Positions 13,295 through 26,355 of a stretch of DNA of 26,780 bases are shown here, in pieces; positions within the stretch are counted from its first letter, which is position 1, and each line of letters starts with the position of its first letter. A program made the translations under genes and the position numbers. The DNA comes from a virus (Duplodnaviria > Caudoviricetes). The stretch is from IMG/VR virus record IMGVR_UViG_3300046779_000422, positions 1-26,780 of that record; one strand, 5' to 3'. The notes below the pieces were generated by a model. It saw nothing but the letters and a program-made list of their open reading frames with translations. It had not been told where the DNA came from and made no database searches.

Positions 13295-15213
13295 TAAGTC
13301 AGGTCCACAATTTCACACGAACCACCGACACATGCGAAAGTGCTAGTGCCTTTAGAAGTGTCTTCAGTTTCATACTCGCTCAGTTTAGACCAATCAATCC
13401 GTTCAGGCATCAAAGCCAGAGCGTCAAGATATTCACGTTCACTACACTCCTGATAAGGAGCCTGCTGATAAGTGTGATCAGAGTGTGGCAAGAAAGACAC
13501 ACCAGACACCTCATCGAAGTAAGCATAAACCCAAGCACCCACTTCCATCCATTCGTGGTCACGAACAGTGATGGTCACAGAAGGCTTGTGTTCACACCAG
13601 TAACGCTGATAGGTCAACCACAACTCAAGTTGCTCAATAGCAGTCATATCGTTGCGAGTGATAGCACCAGCAGGAGACTTCTGGGGGAAACTGAAAACGG
13701 TGGTGCTTTCAGGCTTCATAACATCAGGCTCATGCGGGATGCCTTGGTCAATCATAAACTGCGTCAGAGGGTCTTTGTTGTCGCCACGCACAGTGCGAAT
13801 ATAATAGGCTGAGTGACGAGCATGAATCCCACTAGCGGAATCAACCAATTGGGACACTGTGCCTGACGGTTTGACGCAAGTGATAGCAGCAGAAGCAGGA
13901 ATACTGAGGCGTTCAGCCCACTCAGCGTTAGTAGCAATAGCGACATTCTTCAGATGCTCCAAGGTTTTAGCGAGTTCAAATGTGTCTTTGCTGGACATAT
14001 GGACATTATCCATAATCCCCGTAAGAGAAACACCCAACAGACGCTCTTCCTCAGTGTTATCCTTCCACACCTTACGCAGATAAGGGAAATGCGTATAGGT
14101 CGATTGGATAGTGCCAAGGATGGTTGCAAGGCGAACCTTATGCTCAAGGTCTTCTAGAGTGTCGGTTGCACGAACAACAACTTCCGACAGGTTACAGAAC
14201 TGATACGGACGAAGGATAATTTCCGAACAGGGATTCGTGCCAAACTCGTAGTCAGGGTTACGACGACCATTCTTTGCAGCCTGCTTCTTAGAGGCAGGAC
14301 GAGAGAAGATGCCACGCTCACCACTCTTGCTTTCCACCAGAGACAGCCACTCACGCATGAAGGTTTCCATGTCGGGCTTCTCAGTGTAGGCCACAGAGTT
14401 ATTAGCCAGAGCGCGTTGACCGTTGCCATCCCACCACTGACCGCTCTTAGCGTGACGCATACGGTCATCAGATAGGTTCGACAGAGAGATCATTGCAGAG
14501 CGACGAACACCACCCACAACAACAACTTCACCAATCTTACACATAATGTCGTGGCATTCCAGCGAAGACAGCTTGCGACCCTTTGCAGCAACAAACGTGT
14601 TAATCACGAAGTTGAACAACTCCACCAGTGGAGCAGGACCAGAAGCACGACCACCAAAAGTCTTGAGTTTAGCGCCAGCAGGACGAACCTTCGACACATC
14701 CCAAGTGGGAATTTCCCCTGCATACAGCAGACTGATAAGCTGACGCAGGGCCTTTGCCCAACCCTCTTTGCTATCCTTCACCACAATGATCGTTTCGCTC
14801 TTGAACATCTGCTCAGGAACTTCAGGCAACTTACTGACGTATTGACGCTCAACAGAGAAGCCCACACCAGTGCCACAGAGCAGGATGAACATAGCCTCAT
14901 CAAACGACTTGGGGTCATCTACAGGCAGGTAGGAGCAGTTGTAGCCAGCAGTGTTGTCGCGTTCCAGAGCAGGGCCAGCAGTCATCATAGCCCGCATAGA
15001 AGGCATGATACTCAGGCTCAGAATAGCCTCATGGATTTCATCCACAGCCAAGGCATCGTCCCCAATCTTAGGGTAGACAATGTTTGTCATGTAGCGTTGA
15101 ACCGTCTCAGCCCAAGTCTCACGACGATTTTCAGACTCGATCCAACGGGCATAGCGCGAAGTTGCAATGAATGCCGAGTAGTCAGTAGGCAAATAGTTAC
15201 TCTTAGTGACCAT
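13294..15213 (-). CDS. nrdJ: Class II (adenosylcobalamin-dependent) ribonucleotide reductase, monomeric RTPR-like
   Basis: YNCSY, GTGVGFS, GGVRRSAMI, NPCSEI, KPSGTVS, CEHKPS and C-terminal CVGGSCE motifs; no beta-subunit gene in window. Start taken at ATG 15213 (SD GGAG). Confidence 0.92.
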   Translation of the reverse strand: MVTKSNYLPTDYSAFIATSRYARWIESENRRETWAETVQRYMTNIVYPKIGDDALAVDEIHEAILSLSIMPSMRAMMTAGPALERDNTAGYNCSYLPVDDPKSFDEAMFILLCGTGVGFSVERQYVSKLPEVPEQMFKSETIIVVKDSKEGWAKALRQLISLLYAGEIPTWDVSKVRPAGAKLKTFGGRASGPAPLVELFNFVINTFVAAKGRKLSSLECHDIMCKIGEVVVVGGVRRSAMISLSNLSDDRMRHAKSGQWWDGNGQRALANNSVAYTEKPDMETFMREWLSLVESKSGERGIFSRPASKKQAAKNGRRNPDYEFGTNPCSEIILRPYQFCNLSEVVVRATDTLEDLEHKVRLATILGTIQSTYTHFPYLRKVWKDNTEEERLLGVSLTGIMDNVHMSSKDTFELAKTLEHLKNVAIATNAEWAERLSIPASAAITCVKPSGTVSQLVDSASGIHARHSAYYIRTVRGDNKDPLTQFMIDQGIPHEPDVMKPESTTVFSFPQKSPAGAITRNDMTAIEQLELWLTYQRYWCEHKPSVTITVRDHEWMEVGAWVYAYFDEVSGVSFLPHSDHTYQQAPYQECSEREYLDALALMPERIDWSKLSEYETEDTSKGTSTFACVGGSCEIVDLT

Positions 15214-15646
15214 ATTCTTCTCCAATATTTTCAGTTTTACCATTCAAAGCACGATAAACAGTCATGGTGCTAACTTTTACAATCTCGGCTATTTGTTGGT
15301 AGTATAACCCTTGCTCTCTCAACTCCCTGCTTTTTTGAACTTGATCAGGGGTTAGTTTTAGCAAATGTTTGCCATTCGGTTTGTTGTAAAGTGGTTTGTG
15401 TTCTCTGATAAGACCTTGTTCAATTTTACAAGCCTCTTTTTTGGGAAGACCTGTTGTAACAATTTCTACCCAATCTGTAGCTACAAAACCATCTTGGGTT
15501 AATGCCTCTAGATGATCTAGGTGATCTTGACTTCTTAAAACAGAGCGTTTGCTCCCATGTATCCAAGCTCTTCCTCTACACCCATGACCAATGTAAAGTA
15601 ATTCGCTTGTTCTTGGGTCTATGTGTTTATAGACATAATATATCAA
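15203..15646 (-). CDS. Free-standing GIY-YIG endonuclease-like protein with C-terminal HTH
   Basis: YYVYKH...LYIGHG...R...E...YN motifs; YQQIAEIVKVSTMTVYRAL HTH; AT-rich. Start taken as TTG 15646. Confidence 0.75.
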   Translation of the reverse strand: MIYYVYKHIDPRTSELLYIGHGCRGRAWIHGSKRSVLRSQDHLDHLEALTQDGFVATDWVEIVTTGLPKKEACKIEQGLIREHKPLYNKPNGKHLLKLTPDQVQKSRELREQGLYYQQIAEIVKVSTMTVYRALNGKTENIGEEYGH

Positions 15647-15659
15647 GTTAGTCTTTCTT

Positions 15660-15824
15660 TTAGTCAATGAGGATTGCAAGACGGTGGGCCTGAACAATAA
15701 GCCTGTTTGTGGTCAGATCAACTTTAGACATCATAGGGTTCTGGATTGACCACTCAGCCAGCACCACAGGGACGCTCTTGTCTTTGATTGTCTCTAGTTT
15801 GTCAATCAGTTCTTGGATAGTCAT
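15660..15824 (-). CDS. Hypothetical protein, 54 aa (MTIQELIDKLETIKDKSVPVV...)
   Basis: Read by hand; ATGA overlap with the MazG-like stop; fills the gap. Confidence 0.7.
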   Translation of the reverse strand: MTIQELIDKLETIKDKSVPVVLAEWSIQNPMMSKVDLTTNRLIVQAHRLAILID

Positions 15825-16294: not shown

Positions 16295-16440
16295 TGTTGA
16301 TCCATTTCATATCTTTCTAGGAAGACGTAACCCATGTCATCCAAGATTTCAAGTGTTTTCCACAAAGTAAGGTTATGGTCTTTCAGGATGCTGGTGAAGC
16401 CACGCTCTTCGATAAGTTTGATAATCTGCTCTTTAGTCAT
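16291..16440 (-). CDS. Hypothetical protein, 49 aa (MTKEQIIKLIEERG...)
   Basis: Read by hand; ATGA overlaps at both ends. Confidence 0.7.
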   Translation of the reverse strand: MTKEQIIKLIEERGFTSILKDHNLTLWKTLEILDDMGYVFLERYEMDQQ

Positions 16441-16997
16441 TTTCTCGCATACAGTTTTGTGGTCCCAATAAAGTCTCCATCAAACAGATACCAAGCAAAG
16501 TCATCTGTGCTTGACTGCTTGCTGTCTTCTATCCATTTGACACGACCAATTGGGACTACCTTCTTGCACATTTGCATGTAGACACCCATTCGCTTGTTGC
16601 AAGCATAACTGAAGGGCAACAACAACCAAGTGGGCTTTAAGGTTGGTAGGTGATCTAGCATAGGCTTGAGCATTTCCCACTGGAAGGGTGGGTTAGTGAT
16701 GATCAAGTCTACACCAACAACATCAGCGTCAGCCAACGTCAGGGCGCTTCTCTGTTCTACAAGACTTGCCCTTGGGGTGACATCACAAGCATATCGACAC
16801 ACAACACCATAGTCAGTCAGAGATTCGATATGTTTTACCAGATCACCAGCACCAGCGCAAGGCTCAATGAAGTTGCCATACTCGAACAAGTGAGGCAGCA
16901 GAGGTTCAACAGCCTTACGTGGTGTAGGGTAGAAGTCGTCCTTACGTCTTTCCTTGGTCGTGATGTTGTTACTACTCACATTTGCTTTCTTACCCAC
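16437..16997 (-). CDS. Orphan DNA amino-methyltransferase (probably N6-adenine)
   Basis: DFYPTP, EPCAGAG (SAM binding) and ITNPPF (catalytic) motifs. Confidence 0.85.
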   Translation of the reverse strand: MGKKANVSSNNITTKERRKDDFYPTPRKAVEPLLPHLFEYGNFIEPCAGAGDLVKHIESLTDYGVVCRYACDVTPRASLVEQRSALTLADADVVGVDLIITNPPFQWEMLKPMLDHLPTLKPTWLLLPFSYACNKRMGVYMQMCKKVVPIGRVKWIEDSKQSSTDDFAWYLFDGDFIGTTKLYARK

Positions 16998-20480: not shown

Positions 20481-21083
20481 TTATTCCCAGCCACCACTAC
20501 CAGCACCAGCATACTCAACGAGATTGGTGATACCAATACCCATCAACTGAACTTTAGAGAACTTCTTCCCCTTAGCCTTACCTTGAGTGCCAATGCCAAA
20601 CGAGATAGACAGTTTGACCTTAGCCTTCGTGCCATTACCAATCAGACCATCTTGGACAGTCCATTGGGTAGCGTATTGATCCAGACGACCTTTCTCGCCA
20701 GCTTCTTGCCAAGCCTTCTTAGCTGCTTCCAGATCGAAGGTTTGCGGGGGACCAAGGATCAGACGCTGATCGGTCGGGTTGTTGTTTTCATCCATGACCA
20801 TGAACTTCGGATGGATGTGAGGACGACGAACAGTAAACTTGTAGAGCGTCTTACCGTCACGCTCAAAAGGCTTGAACTGAGCAAAAGCACCTTGCTTCTC
20901 AGGGCAACCCCCTGCAATGGCTTTATCCTTGTTCTCTTCATCAAGGATCAGCGTCACCTTGTAGACACCATCCGTATCGGAATGGTCCACATGCTCATTT
21001 CCCATGTCACGGTTCTCATAGAAAACCTGTGCGTATTCCAGTTCAGCATCAAGGGTGACGTATTTGGTTTTGTTCTGCGACAT
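20481..21083 (-). CDS. Single-stranded DNA-binding protein (T7 gp2.5-like)
   Basis: Position after DNA polymerase; GVYKVTL, LIGNGTKAKVK and NLVEY patterns; aromatic C-terminal tail. Confidence 0.65.
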   Translation of the reverse strand: MSQNKTKYVTLDAELEYAQVFYENRDMGNEHVDHSDTDGVYKVTLILDEENKDKAIAGGCPEKQGAFAQFKPFERDGKTLYKFTVRRPHIHPKFMVMDENNNPTDQRLILGPPQTFDLEAAKKAWQEAGEKGRLDQYATQWTVQDGLIGNGTKAKVKLSISFGIGTQGKAKGKKFSKVQLMGIGITNLVEYAGAGSGGWE

Positions 21084-21202: not shown

Positions 21203-21210
21203 ATTACACC

Positions 21211-22635
21211 TCAGTGAGTTTCAGCGTAGTTATTACCAAACTGAACGTCCACACTAAGGGGGATATTCAGTTTAAGTTTCTTGTTTGTTGCCTCAATGGC
21301 TAACAGAAGTTTCTCTTTGTGGTTTTCTTCATCTCCTACTTTCAGGTATGAACCCTTTTCGTCGTGCATCTGGAAGTTAACAACAACATTCTGCTTACGC
21401 ACATAGAACAACCAAGTATCGAAGGCGTAGACCCCCGTAGATTGGTTCACAGTAGAGAAGGCGTCTTTCTCTGAGCGAAGGTTATGCCAGAAGCCAGATA
21501 CAGGGTTCTTGACCCACATATACGGCCCAACAGTCTTCATCTCAAATTGCTCAACAGCTTTCTTAACAGAGAAGTTACGCTTCCAGTAATCTTCAATTAG
21601 TTTCTCTGCTTGCTTGACAGGGATGCCAATCGTTCTTGCCAACTTGGCTTTACCAACGCCATACACACAACTGTAGTTAGCAGCCTTATATTGGCTCCTG
21701 ATGGCCTTGAGGTTAATCTCCCCATTCTTGTGGCGCTCTACATCTTCTCTAGACACAGCCCCAGCGAATGCAGCCAAGTCCAAGTGAGGATCAAAACCCT
21801 CTTGGCTCATTTCCTCTACATAGTCAGGGTCAAAAGGCTGCATGTAGTGTCGCTTGGTGGTGTCTTCCAAACTTACCATATCAGAGCCACAAAGAACCAT
21901 TCCCTCTGGGGCTACGATAGAGCCACGAATTTCCTTACCCCAAGGTTTGTCGATCTTGGGAAGGTTCACAATAGGCTTCCTGTGCTGGAACCTGAAAGTG
22001 TTCGTAAGACCACCAACACTAGCCACAACCTTGCCATTTACCTGATTGTCGATAAGGGACTTGAACACACCCTTACGATGCTGGATGATGCCCATATCAA
22101 CAAGAAGCTGGATTTCAGGAACCTCTTCTGCCAACTCAACAACACTGTCACACAGGTCATCCCCGTTCTTGATCTGGGGGATACTGCGCTCAGAGCCATC
22201 ATCTTCCTTGACATACTTGAAGGTCTTAGGCTTCCAGCCAAGAGAGAACAACCAATCCTTTACTTGTTCGTGGCTATTAGGGTTTCCGTCTTGATAACCG
22301 ATCAACTCATTGACAGGACCAGCGGTGTTCTCTGGTAGTTTCATCTCCTTCAGTTTACCGAACCAAGCAAGACCATGTGCGCTCAATGAACCATCTTTCT
22401 TATACAGGTTCTTGGGCTTGTTGATGGCCTTGTATAGGGGCTTCTTAGGCATCACCTTGGACAGTTCGTTGATCTTGTCTCGTTGCAGGGTTTCCAGCTT
22501 GTCGAAGTTAAGGCGAACATTTTCCATCTGTAGGGTGATAGGATTAGCCTCTTGTTCCCTAGCGCAGTCAGCCTTTAAGCCAAGATACTGGATTAGACGA
22601 ATTGCATCATCACTGAGTTGTTTCAACAAGCCCAA
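21211..22635 (-). CDS. polA: DNA polymerase family A, polymerase domain only (split gene, part 2)
   Basis: Motif A (SDMVSLE), B (RSQYKAANYSCVYG) and C (MHDE); no exonuclease motifs. True start probably TTG 22629 or 22626 given SD AAGGA at 22640-22636. Confidence 0.92.
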   Translation of the reverse strand: MGLLKQLSDDAIRLIQYLGLKADCAREQEANPITLQMENVRLNFDKLETLQRDKINELSKVMPKKPLYKAINKPKNLYKKDGSLSAHGLAWFGKLKEMKLPENTAGPVNELIGYQDGNPNSHEQVKDWLFSLGWKPKTFKYVKEDDGSERSIPQIKNGDDLCDSVVELAEEVPEIQLLVDMGIIQHRKGVFKSLIDNQVNGKVVASVGGLTNTFRFQHRKPIVNLPKIDKPWGKEIRGSIVAPEGMVLCGSDMVSLEDTTKRHYMQPFDPDYVEEMSQEGFDPHLDLAAFAGAVSREDVERHKNGEINLKAIRSQYKAANYSCVYGVGKAKLARTIGIPVKQAEKLIEDYWKRNFSVKKAVEQFEMKTVGPYMWVKNPVSGFWHNLRSEKDAFSTVNQSTGVYAFDTWLFYVRKQNVVVNFQMHDEKGSYLKVGDEENHKEKLLLAIEATNKKLKLNIPLSVDVQFGNNYAETH

Positions 22636-23416
22636 TCCTTTCTAGATTTTTATAGGGATGATTACCAAGTAGATTGGCAATAGGCCAATAGATTGAGTTA
22701 CCTACTTGTTTAAGTCTGTCCATCCTTCGGGGTAGAGGAACATCCATTCTGCGAAGCAAGGGTTCAGGCCGACTACCGAATCTTCCGAAGGGATTGTCGT
22801 AGACTTGTTGCAAATCCTTTTTGCCACCCCATCCCCCTTGTCCAGTTTCGCCAAGATACTGAAGCGGGACCAATCTCGACCTTCCCTCGCAGCTACGGTA
22901 GGCAAGTATCCAGATTCTGTCCCTTTGGTGACACGCGCCAAGGGCGGAAGCGGGGATACAATGCCACTCTGCATCATACCCGACCTCATTGAGGCCACGA
23001 AGGACTTCTCCCAATCCCCTAGTGCGAAGGGCTGATACGTTTTCAATGATAACCCCTTTAGGTTTAATCTCAGAAATCAGACGAAGATATTCAAACCAAT
23101 GCCCTGATCTTTCCCCATCAAGACCCTTACCAAGACCCGCATAAGAGATGTCCTGACAAGGAAAACCACCAGTAATGATGTCAATGTTAGTATATCCAGC
23201 TACACCACATTCCTCACTATATAAATACCCAGACTTATATTCTAGTGATTTAATATCTCCATAGCAATAAACAGAAGGCCAATGCTTCTTAAGCACTTGT
23301 CTCGCGCTATTATCCCATTCACAAAAAGCAACAGTCTCAAAAAGATTTGTCTTCTCTAAACCTAGAGTAAACCCACCAATACCAGCAAACAAATCTAGAA
23401 CTTTTAGTTTTTCCAT
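22610..23416 (-). CDS. DNA C5-cytosine methyltransferase, large (alpha) polypeptide
   Basis: Motifs I (LFAGIGG), IV (GFPCQ), VI (ENV), VIII (QRDRIW) and X (RLKQVGNS); no canonical motif IX. Confidence 0.92.
   Translation of the reverse strand: MEKLKVLDLFAGIGGFTLGLEKTNLFETVAFCEWDNSARQVLKKHWPSVYCYGDIKSLEYKSGYLYSEECGVAGYTNIDIITGGFPCQDISYAGLGKGLDGERSGHWFEYLRLISEIKPKGVIIENVSALRTRGLGEVLRGLNEVGYDAEWHCIPASALGACHQRDRIWILAYRSCEGRSRLVPLQYLGETGQGGWGGKKDLQQVYDNPFGRFGSRPEPLLRRMDVPLPRRMDRLKQVGNSIYWPIANLLGNHPYKNLERIGLVETTQ
22702..23046 (-). CDS. Overprinted C5-MTase small (beta) polypeptide carrying motif IX
   Basis: 114-codon alternative-frame ORF nested in the MTase, ending LNPCFAEWMFLYPEGWTD; AAAGGGG upstream of TTG. 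Confidence 0.72.
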   Translation of the reverse strand: MKTYQPFALGDWEKSFVASMRSGMMQSGIVSPLPPLARVTKGTESGYLPTVAAREGRDWSRFSILAKLDKGDGVAKRICNKSTTIPSEDSVVGLNPCFAEWMFLYPEGWTDLNK

Positions 23417-23862
23417 CCGTAGAGGCTCCCTAGTTTTCTCTCCAGTTCCTTCCAGAGTTTCCAGTTGATCTTAACATCTTCAGAAACGCGATGGGCATAT
23501 TGTTCTTTGGTCAGGTTGTGCCAGTCATCAACCTTGGGCTTCGGGACACCATAGTAGATGCCATATTGCTCAAGGCCATGACGGTCACGATCAAAGTTCA
23601 CATACCACGAAAGAAACAAGGTGTCGACAAACTGAGTGTATTGCAGATCAAGTGAAAGCAGCCTGTTCAGCAAGGGCATGTCGTGCCTAATGGCGTTGTG
23701 GGCGACAAACATGCAGTCCTTCTGTGACAGGACAGCCTTCATCTCGTCGTAGTCATGAGTCACATTGATAGTTGCCCCGTCTTCGGTCCAAGAAAAGACG
23801 TGCAGTTTTGTGGCTTCATAGGCCAGACCATCACTTTCGGTATCGAAGACGATAAACTTCAT
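23404..23862 (-). CDS. polA: DNA polymerase family A 3'-5' exonuclease domain (split gene, part 1)
   Basis: Exo I (FDTESDG), Exo II (HNAIRHD), DTL and Exo III (HRVSEDV) motifs; SD GAGG; ends with its own TAA. Confidence 0.88.
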   Translation of the reverse strand: MKFIVFDTESDGLAYEATKLHVFSWTEDGATINVTHDYDEMKAVLSQKDCMFVAHNAIRHDMPLLNRLLSLDLQYTQFVDTLFLSWYVNFDRDRHGLEQYGIYYGVPKPKVDDWHNLTKEQYAHRVSEDVKINWKLWKELERKLGSLYGWKN

Positions 23863-24221: not shown

Positions 24222-24468
24222 GTTTCTTCAGTGCCTCCATGATGATCTTTGCGATGGTGTATGTTGCTTCAGTCTCAACGTGATCCATTCCATATTCGGG
24301 TTCCCAACCTTTGTCAAGTTCCCTTTTGGATGGGTAAGTGTCACCACCAAAAAGGTTGATGGTCACATGTTGCTTAAACCCGAAGATGTCTTCGACCTCA
24401 ACCCCGATACAAGTCTCATAGTATTTTTCTGTTAGTGGAAGGAGTTCTACGTCAATGATCTTCACCAT
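24211..24468 (-). CDS. Hypothetical protein
   Basis: Overlaps the helicase stop; SD AAGGAG upstream. Confidence 0.65.
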   Translation of the reverse strand: MVKIIDVELLPLTEKYYETCIGVEVEDIFGFKQHVTINLFGGDTYPSKRELDKGWEPEYGMDHVETEATYTIAKIIMEALKKHGY

Positions 24469-26072
24469 GTATCTGTCTTCTCCTTAAGAGTGAAAGATTC
24501 AGGATCGAAGAGCAACTCACCAGCTTCGCCTTCAAGTCCTGTCGGTCGGTTTTTCTTGATTAGCAGCTTTGTGGTGTTCCTGTCAAGAAGATTATCACTC
24601 TCTTTGTCACGTTCAATGTCGATCACCACAGAGGCTCGTTGGCCGATCATACGACAGTATTTGATTTCGCCCATCTCGTTGGTGTGAGCGATAGTGATGA
24701 TCCCTACGTTCAAGTCTGCTGCCAGCTTGGAGAGACGCACTGCAAGGTCAGCCAGAGCCGCCTCTTTACTGTCGTCGTTGCTGATCGTGATGACATCCTG
24801 AATGGGTTCAAACATGATGTATTCACAACCATAGACTTGCGACAGAACCCTGATCTGGTCCACTAGTTCTTCAGCACCATCCTCTTCACGAAGGTGGAAC
24901 TGCATGTAACCAGTATTGGCGCTAATCTCCTTGATAGCCTCTTCGACCTTTTCCAGCTTTCCTTTCTCGGTGATGAGGTCTTTACGGGTCAGGTTATCTT
25001 TCAGATAGTAGGACACAACACCAAGAAGGCTACGCAGTTTGGTTTCTTCAAGGTGCCATGTGGCAAACTTCACTTCGGGGTAGTTCTGGATGAAGTTGTT
25101 TTCCAGATACCGCATCAGTTCAGATTTACCAATACCAGTTGGGCCTTTGATAACAGTGAAATGACCACGCATCAGACCCAGCAGCTTCTCATCAAGGGCT
25201 TGAATGTTGGTCGGGATATAAGAGTGTTCAGGTGTATCGTGCAGAAGTTTCAGGAAAGCATCTTCGCTAGAGTAGATGTTGTCTGGCGTGAACAGTTTGG
25301 CATTGAACCAAGCGTTCTTGAACAACTGAGACTTGCCATCCTGAAGGAAAGCGTTGGCGTCTTTGTATTTGTCGTGTGGCACCTCATAGACACGACCCGG
25401 AAACAAGTGCATCAGAGACAAGGCAAACTTATCAGCCTTCTTGTCGCTATCAAAACTCAGGTAAATCTTCTCAAATGAACCAAGCCAATCCTTGCAGTTC
25501 TCAAGGAGTTTCTTGGAAGGAGTTGCCCCCGGAAGACTTACAACAGGATACTGGCTACCAAGCATCTGGAAAGCTGACAGAGCGTCAAGTTCCCCTTCCG
25601 TAATGGTCACAGCCCTTGACGATCCAGCAGGGAATTTGTCCATGCCAAACAGCATGTCAGACTTGAACCCATTACCAGTGTGGAAGTCTTTAGGGAACAC
25701 ACGGGTCTTGGTCGATCCGTTAGGGTAGACATAGACGTGGTTATGTGGTTCGTCGTTCTGGTTGAAGGTCTTGACGTTGTAGAACTCCATAGTGCCTTTG
25801 AGGACACCACGAATAGGGTGGAAGTATCCGTTAGAGTCGTCAACGACTTTCAGGTTAGCCTTGCTCATGGTTCTCTCTTCAAAGTCAGAGTTTGTGTTGT
25901 CGTTCTTGAGAGGGTAGCGTTCTGCTGCCCAATCCATGACGTGCATACCCTTAGATGGGTAGGCTTGTCCACAGGAATAGCAATAGCCAACATGCTTATC
26001 CACTGACCAAGAGAAGGCGTCAGAACTACCACAAGATTCATGTGGGCATGGTTGGTGGTTCAGATCACTCAT
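24462..26072 (-). CDS. T7 gp4-like primase-helicase
   Basis: Zn-binding CPHESC...CYSC, TOPRIM (TEGELDA, FDSD, KDAN), Walker A GPTGIGKS, and KNRPTG. Confidence 0.95.
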   Translation of the reverse strand: MSDLNHQPCPHESCGSSDAFSWSVDKHVGYCYSCGQAYPSKGMHVMDWAAERYPLKNDNTNSDFEERTMSKANLKVVDDSNGYFHPIRGVLKGTMEFYNVKTFNQNDEPHNHVYVYPNGSTKTRVFPKDFHTGNGFKSDMLFGMDKFPAGSSRAVTITEGELDALSAFQMLGSQYPVVSLPGATPSKKLLENCKDWLGSFEKIYLSFDSDKKADKFALSLMHLFPGRVYEVPHDKYKDANAFLQDGKSQLFKNAWFNAKLFTPDNIYSSEDAFLKLLHDTPEHSYIPTNIQALDEKLLGLMRGHFTVIKGPTGIGKSELMRYLENNFIQNYPEVKFATWHLEETKLRSLLGVVSYYLKDNLTRKDLITEKGKLEKVEEAIKEISANTGYMQFHLREEDGAEELVDQIRVLSQVYGCEYIMFEPIQDVITISNDDSKEAALADLAVRLSKLAADLNVGIITIAHTNEMGEIKYCRMIGQRASVVIDIERDKESDNLLDRNTTKLLIKKNRPTGLEGEAGELLFDPESFTLKEKTDTW

Positions 26073-26355
26073 TTGGTTGTTTTGCCTTTTCAAGCATAGT
26101 TTTCAATACTTCCTCTGTTGTTGTATTAACTGCGGCACAATACAGAGAAAAGCGGATACCGAGAGTTGCCATATCAATCGCAGCTTTCTTATTGATGTCA
26201 AAGGTAATAATACAACTACCGTCTTCTTGATCTTGAATATCAGTTACATCCAAGTAGTTTACCTCACTGTTATGCTTAGTCGTAGCAGCGCACCCATCCC
26301 CTGAAGGATAATTAATAGGTTCACGACAAGAAGGGCAAAGTTTAACTTCAGTCAT
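26065..26355 (-). CDS. Hypothetical protein with N-terminal CxxC
   Basis: SD AAGGAG before ATG 26355; alternative GTG at 26388. Confidence 0.7.
   Translation of the reverse strand: MTEVKLCPSCREPINYPSGDGCAATTKHNSEVNYLDVTDIQDQEDGSCIITFDINKKAAIDMATLGIRFSLYCAAVNTTTEEVLKTMLEKAKQPNE

Follow-up and report, generated by a model that had tools for sequence, protein, structure and literature searches.

The family A DNA polymerase of a tailed phage (Duplodnaviria, Caudoviricetes; IMG/VR record IMGVR_UViG_3300046779_000422) is encoded by two genes, one for the 3'-5' exonuclease (exo) chain and one for the polymerase (pol) chain, and a C5 cytosine methyltransferase (MTase) gene lies between them. We consider it probable that the two chains reassemble non-covalently, and that the break was recombined into the locus as an MTase-carrying cassette. 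The window is the whole stretch of DNA analysed (positions 1 to 26,780 of the record). L-numbers denote homologous loci compared with the window, X-numbers the sequencing runs whose contigs were aligned to it. The elements of the split locus are the following.

23404..23862, minus strand: exo chain, family A DNA polymerase 3'-5' exonuclease; 152 aa, own ATG and stop; phrog_17, 7e-24
21211..22629, minus strand: pol chain; 472 aa from the likely TTG, frame open from 22635; PF00476; phrog_17, 1e-60
22610..23416, minus strand: C5 cytosine MTase, alpha chain; 268 aa, 807 nt; PF00145, 4e-42 (residues 4-175); TIGR00675 above cutoff
22702..23046, minus strand: nested open reading frame (ORF) of the putative beta chain, in the +1 frame; 114 aa; TTG start, Shine-Dalgarno (SD)-like GGGGT, motif IX-like stretch at the end
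22600..23443, minus strand: exchanged tract (candidate cassette), 844 nt; 46 nt in its place in a near-identical strain
23404..23443, minus strand: left arm; new exo C-terminus G-x-L-Y-G-W-K-N-stop; contains the SD (GGGAG, 23430-23426) and the start of the cargo gene
22600..22640, minus strand: right arm; SD (AAGGA, 22640-22636), TTG and new pol N-terminus M-x-K-Q-L-x-x-D/E-A; overlaps the cargo stop

The exo and pol ORFs share the same reading frame, with an offset of 1227 nt. Their description as separate in-frame genes in the first-pass annotation, made from the sequence letters, is borne out by ORF calls and family matches. The MTase ATG sits within the final exo codons, the MTase stop within the first pol codons. 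The 13-nt overlap with the exo stop stands as annotated; that with the pol start, set then at up to 26 nt, would measure 20 nt, as pol most likely starts at TTG 22629. This codon is preceded by an SD-like AAGGA (duplex of -5.4 kcal/mol, versus +0.2 for 22635), and aligns with the TTG starts of the pol genes of L017 and L163. Starts at 22635, where SD pairing is absent, and at TTG 22626, a codon lost in the X9 strain and in L017, were rejected. Hand counts of G and C residues (64/180 at 23221-23400, 88/180 at 23581-23760) proved exact on recount, and the G+C content at third codon positions (0.26 in the 5' part of the MTase gene, 0.60 in exo, 0.53 in pol) agrees with the foreign origin proposed for the MTase.

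A strain nearly identical to the window, lacking the MTase, was found in run X7. Contig 26 of this run matches the window at 1198 of 1228 nt (97.6%), joins 22599 to 23444 and skips 22600-23443. Forty-six other letters replace the 844-nt tract, with a net loss of 798 nt that preserves the frame. From exo start to pol stop this allele measures 1854 nt (617 codons plus the stop), as in the intact relatives L002-L008. The stretch of the linker that was read (30/46 letters at the pol side, hand-translated from the reverse complement) encodes H-L-Y-S-S-K-E-D-M-V, then R-L-I, with no stop; these last 10 of the 15 linker codons are similar to intact linkers (e.g. L150), and unlike the arms of the window. 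What is exchanged over the 844 nt is therefore more than the MTase gene, as about 9 codons of exo and the first codons of pol go with it. A loose end at 22599 is found in X7 and X10, which were counted as one observation, having the longest record and the loose end in common; X1 and X2, possibly the source of the record, were left uncounted. Both alleles are present in one sample, because a second X7 contig carries the MTase allele. Judging from the contigs, intact-length and MTase-split alleles coexist in one species-level population.

Twenty of the 22 runs listed hold part of the stretch, and 7 different runs were aligned. Both junctions are covered by contig 18 of X5, with 62 differences from the window over 2517 nt; contigs of X3 and X9 bridge the pol-side junction. 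X5, X3 and X9 come from three other studies, and misassembly, named beforehand as a way in which the layout could prove false, is ruled out by these bridging contigs. The earlier statements that the insert leaves no room for an intron, and that the stops exclude an intein, are likewise confirmed. The insert is coding throughout, partly in two frames, and no group I or group II intron family was found by Rfam at E up to 1; two snoRNA matches at E 0.5 are read as chance. Inteins and split inteins were rejected, as the pol frame is interrupted by stops, neither piece gains as many as 10 residues, and intein families gave no match. No endonuclease was found in the insert, which holds the MTase alpha and beta ORFs only.

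The comparison with relatives included 128 loci with an exonuclease of at least 40% identity and a readable junction, 85 of which are non-redundant. The widest viral scan took the best 80 of 593, so that counts of split rows are not an estimate of frequency. The split at the loop used in the window is found in 18/85 non-redundant loci, window included. Six (L001 among them) are direct overlaps, 12 have genes in the gap: MTases in three (window, L017, L163), an HNH endonuclease in one (L172), and small ORFs, with no Pfam match among those scanned, in eight. The ends of the two chains sort these alleles. An exo ending in G-x-L-Y-G occurs in none of 63 fused rows and in 4/12 split rows (window, L001, L017, L163), 75 of the 85 rows being readable by this pattern. 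The longer Y-G-W ending is restricted to the window, L017 and L163, and the same three loci have in common a pol that begins with x-K-Q-L-x-x-D/E-A and overlaps the cargo stop. The right arm of the window is identical to that of L017 at 23/30 nt and to that of L163 at 18/30, versus 9-10/30 between split alleles and intact relatives. The cores flanking the arms track the intact sisters instead: L017 and L098 agree at 46/48 nt in the core and at 7/18 in the arm. The C5 MTase of L017 is 82% identical to that of the window, and resides in a polymerase which is 44-67% like the window's. The cargo of L163 is an N6/N4-type (amino) MTase (PF01555), whose last codons match the last codons of the C5 enzyme. 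Strain comparison, junction alignment and arm identities all indicate that the codons flanking the insert travel with it.

The pol tree was built from 36 chosen rows, with the junction columns removed. Eleven rows form an all-split clade (support 100/99), which has its own ends and varied cargo or none. The split window, L001, L017 and L163 fall among intact relatives, in three separate groups. In the pol part L017 is nearest to intact L098 (90%) and L163 to intact L168 (88%); the window is placed with intact L002-L009. Forcing the four loci into one clade was rejected (p-AU 1.2e-5); this test group was defined from the junction sequence after a first FastTree tree had been inspected. L001 has no cargo, and its spacing is the intact spacing plus one base; it could be an empty form, a deletion remnant or an error. 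The exact junction pattern matched only the contig of L017 across viral contigs. A metagenome scan with an alignment of the MTase C-terminus gave 21 loci. The search for other exo-MTase-pol arrangements, proposed in the first-pass annotation, succeeded in L017, but no further complete case was met among these 21 loci, and L135 is a partial one. Among contigs from binned metagenome-assembled genomes, 11 distant relatives were found, 0/11 split at the window's loop. Cultured phages hold no homologue of exo, pol or MTase with at least 60% identity; the closest cultured relative of the window polymerase, that of CRP-6 (48%; phage described in PMC6918029), is intact.

A second break site was seen in some relatives. 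In L013 (4851-5336), L014, L101, L117 and L168 the polymerase is split near residue 300 of the pol part, and in L013 and L014 an endonuclease VII gene (PF02945) occupies this gap, where the ORFs overlap and leave an intron little space. Directly after intact pol genes of close relatives reside ORFs which by eye resemble endonucleases (L002 5091-5693, L004 4876-5325, L006 5364-5951, L009 1682-2128); they differ among the four loci, and each could be a driver of gene conversion in the adjoining pol sequence. In a strain found in X5 contig 15, 194 extra letters are present at window position 21207, right after the pol stop codon.

Break and MTase probably arrived together, by recombination, as a ready-made cassette. 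The unit would be made of the last 6–9 exo codons and their stop, the cargo gene, an SD, a TTG and about 9 new pol codons, and would spread by crossover in conserved codons on either side of the break; its cargo would be swappable. Exo, MTase and pol ORFs would be translated from one message by coupled reinitiation, and the cassette may be retained because methylation shields the phage from host restriction. The earlier view that insertion of the MTase at the exo/pol boundary made the split stands as to the place of the break and the two genes which result, not as to its origin: L001 and a whole clade are split without an MTase, and L163 has the same ends and an MTase of a different class. Relatives of this kind had been indicated beforehand as a sign that the insertion was simply intergenic. 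They exist, but the insert did not simply enter an intergenic space in a split lineage, because the 97.6% identical strain has intact spacing. The HNH gene of L172 is the only one at the window's loop, and belongs to the other, all-split clade; it could show a way in which such a break first arises.

Some observations weigh against the cassette. The arms measure only 6–10 codons, a glycine codon doubles as SD, and part of the arm likeness, above all that of L001, could be convergent. Crossover would join genes that are about 50% identical. In the species of the window, change could also have run the other way: the MTase-less strain, whose linker was read at 30 of 46 letters, could be a re-fused allele, because the closest relative L001 (80%) is also split. 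In addition, L017 has a frameshift in its pol piece, around residue 240-246, which may be an error or a mark of decay. The broader proposal is of a mobile gene-fission cassette, free of nuclease and intron and equipped with its own stop, ribosome site and start codon, which splits intact polA genes of phages about 50% alike at one fixed loop, and spreads via a selected, exchangeable MTase on restricting hosts; we put this forward tentatively, as a possibility with the odds somewhat against it.

The split falls where two chains could fold and bind. In an AlphaFold model of intact L002 (pLDDT 90.8; best PDB match T7 DNA polymerase, E 2.6e-28) the break, mapped on intact relatives as had been suggested, lies at the exo/pol boundary, in loop 149-150 between helices 119-148 and 151-173; the next long helix (180-204) is read as the thumb. 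The pol chain of the window modelled alone (pLDDT 89.9) has the same elements, with the first six residues as coil. Because the cut is in a two-residue loop between helices, we infer that exo and pol bind as a two-chain enzyme. The exo chain, which shares 78-81% identity with the N-terminal domain in intact relatives, keeps D7, E9, D61, Y122 and D129 (the invariant columns checked), and the pol chain keeps the residues of motifs A, B (Tyr type) and C. In 15/15 split rows with a full exo, the catalytic residues of exo are retained; more generally, the split rows other than the window have the catalytic residues that were checked wherever their sequence extends to them, save for one position in L140, a partial row. 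In the all-split clade dN/dS (ratio of non-synonymous to synonymous rates) is 0.08-0.13 in both genes in 9/9 comparisons, with dS near 1. The exo variants in X5, taken from 40/184 variant rows, include 9 synonymous codons and 1 non-synonymous codon, and the MTase allele is present in several studies.

Other explanations differ in how they treat these data. The split could be old and inherited, intact relatives being produced by repeated re-fusion and the MTase having fallen into an existing intergenic gap. The nearest relative, L001, is split with no insert, and a whole clade is split at the same loop with varied cargo, as expected in this case. Still, it is unlikely: alleles of the cassette type appear as isolated tips, surrounded by intact relatives, in three separate clades; throughout these clades the intact linkers are of a single length (gap 6) and of helix-type sequence, which is hard to obtain via repeated re-fusion; and the ends differ in the all-split clade. 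A place chosen for function, through coupled expression or contact with the polymerase, so that nascent DNA is methylated at the fork, would fit with two MTase classes in the same gap (C5 in the window and L017, amino in L163), with two more C5 homologues directly before a pol piece (L135 and L030, the upstream piece being off contig) and with starts and stops overlapping at both junctions. But only 1/21 close homologues resides in the gap, two before a pol piece and the rest elsewhere, 9/12 filled gaps hold genes other than MTases, and the near-identical strain has no MTase; a functional placement seems to us quite improbable.

Splicing, or ribosomal bypass of the insert, could in principle still give one polypeptide, as exo and pol share one frame and both junctions have a GGA codon close by. 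A GGA codon is a feature of the bypass in T4 gene 60. In the window, the first GGA is not directly before the stop, and the second (22636) is altered in the X9 strain. The pol piece has a conserved SD and TTG ahead of it, the frame is not maintained in several further split alleles (gaps 1, 7, 19, 205), and an insert with coding sequence over its whole length and no Rfam intron match also speaks against a single chain, which we regard as very improbable. Least credible, with hardly any probability, is that the exo chain is dispensable, or the locus decaying, and the polymerase works with no proofreading. The frameshift of L017, and an exo-pol binding that is deduced from where the cut lies, would leave space for it; the catalytic residues, the excess of synonymous exo variants and the recurrence of the MTase allele in several studies contradict it. 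Recombination of an MTase-carrying cassette is preferred over these four.

The MTase itself is probably a passenger gene that has no particular link with the polymerase. Close homologues (at least 58% identity, 21 non-redundant) have been sorted by position: 1 occupies the split gap, 2 immediately precede a pol piece, 6 come just behind pol and 4 are at other places of the replication module; for the other 8, the locus gave no match to a replication gene. The gene thus appears to behave like a roaming passenger. A coupling of the MTase to replisome levels had been proposed; close homologues are found at many other positions of early regions, and a link to the replisome is unsupported. Between the window and L017 the alpha chain has a dN/dS of 0.08 in the single-coding part; its motif X was read by eye. 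The beta ORF is open in L017, L030 and L135. Versus L017, synonymous divergence (pS) in the alpha frame drops from 0.61 to 0.18 over the beta stretch, and dN/dS in the beta frame is 0.21, and these values indicate that the nested beta ORF is under selection. The end of this ORF is what we take to be motif IX. A strict beta motif pattern was found in 47/80 MTase homologue rows, always in the +1 frame; the misses include the window's own reversed copy. The earlier count of four polypeptides at the locus is a fair reading, although this type of MTase is common.

Some MTase homologues deserve mention for their position. L030 (2-1538) carries an MTase 81% identical to that of the window directly before a 340-aa PolA piece, the upstream piece being off contig. 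This piece is 74% identical to the second pol gene of Lentibacter phage ICBM2, which suggests that the same MTase may also occupy a different split site. L135 (76-1359) has a C5 MTase with 61% identity, which runs into the start of a pol piece; this piece begins at the window's loop, and its N-terminus resembles those of the all-split clade.

Anti-restriction is the usual benefit of orphan MTases in phages, and by analogy is likely the benefit here. No partner restriction enzyme was seen in the window, and motif depletion in the window revealed no target of the MTase. Restriction-site avoidance seems strong, as pointed to by the absence of CCWGG (0, versus about 42 expected each for CCAGG and CCTGG, both strands) and of GTAC (0, versus about 120 expected). 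A second small MTase gene (16437-16997, minus strand; phrog_799, NPPF motif) is likely of the adenine type; in L021-L027 a C5 MTase homologue lies just ahead of a gene that resembles it.

Published systems share some of these features. PolA split into exo and pol has been reported in S-SBP1-like T7-like cyanophages (Czernecki et al. 2023, PMC10201439), and the split defines clade B cyanophages, such as S-TIP37 (PMC12695635). The S-SBP1-like enzymes are alike in family A membership, T7-like fold, separate exo and pol genes, absence of intron and intein, and new termini at the domain boundary. The domain-boundary cut, catalytic residues in both chains and the T7-like fold are all present in the window. 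In S-SBP1-like phages a frameshift has left the two ORFs overlapping, and the split has become fixed across the clade; in the window a cargo gene separates the ORFs, the split allele occurs here and there among intact relatives, and a single species-level population is polymorphic for it. Descent from the frameshift split of clade B was rejected, and because of the intervening 807-nt gene and the intact close relatives the window polymerase is best described, from its sequence, as a PolA-like two-chain enzyme split independently, outside the cyanophage clade. Breaks further into the polymerase part are known. PolA is annotated in two genes in the cultured ICBM2 and Roseobacter phage CRP-5 (GenBank), and is split in MEP401/402, with a small ORF in the gap (PMC10580990).

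Homing endonucleases split genes in Aeh1 (nrdA/mobE), T4 (mobA) and phages 25 and 44RR (gp43A/43B); split gp43 co-purifies and is active, and cargo may invade an existing split (review, PMC2988022). There too an essential gene is cut into two assembling chains, and short flanking tracts move with the insert (PMC2988022). In contrast, the cargo in the window is an MTase with no nuclease domain. The described architecture of M.EcoHK31I, a heterodimeric C5 MTase specific for YGGCCR, is similar to that of the window enzyme: an alpha chain with the catalytic motifs, and a beta chain with motif IX nested in another frame (PMC2836561). The window has 8 YGGCCR sites, a number that speaks neither for nor against this specificity. 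In a literature search with most subscription journals outside its scope, we found no published MTase within a split PolA, and no lateral spread of such a break. The exo/pol split of PolA and the presence of cargo in its gap are known or recurrent; what is added here is that near-identical phages differ in having the break or not, and that it seems to move into intact alleles in the form of a cassette.

The split locus is part of a replication module on the minus strand of the 26.8-kb window, which includes primase-helicase, DNA polymerase, a likely single-stranded DNA-binding protein (SSB), ThyX, an exonuclease, endonuclease I and a class II ribonucleotide reductase (RNR). A scan for promoters and terminators gave signals at or below chance. 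The genes flanking the polymerase are listed below, with an ORF found before the RNR gene.

24462..26093, minus strand: primase-helicase; phrog_239, 9e-93
20481..21083, minus strand: conserved gene after pol, likely SSB by position; 77-83% identity in close relatives, no Pfam or PHROG match
15203-15697, minus strand: ORF with a GIY-YIG-like start (by eye) and a C-terminal helix-turn-helix, possibly a free-standing homing endonuclease

Two alleles that are near-isogenic (about 97% identical), the one split and the other of intact length, offer a natural test of the cost of separating proofreading from synthesis. Loop 149-150 marks a site at which PolA tolerates a cut in several lineages, and phage surveys based on polA would read such split genes as truncated. 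The data suggest that gene fission may spread sideways, as a portable unit, with no need of an intron, an intein or a homing nuclease.

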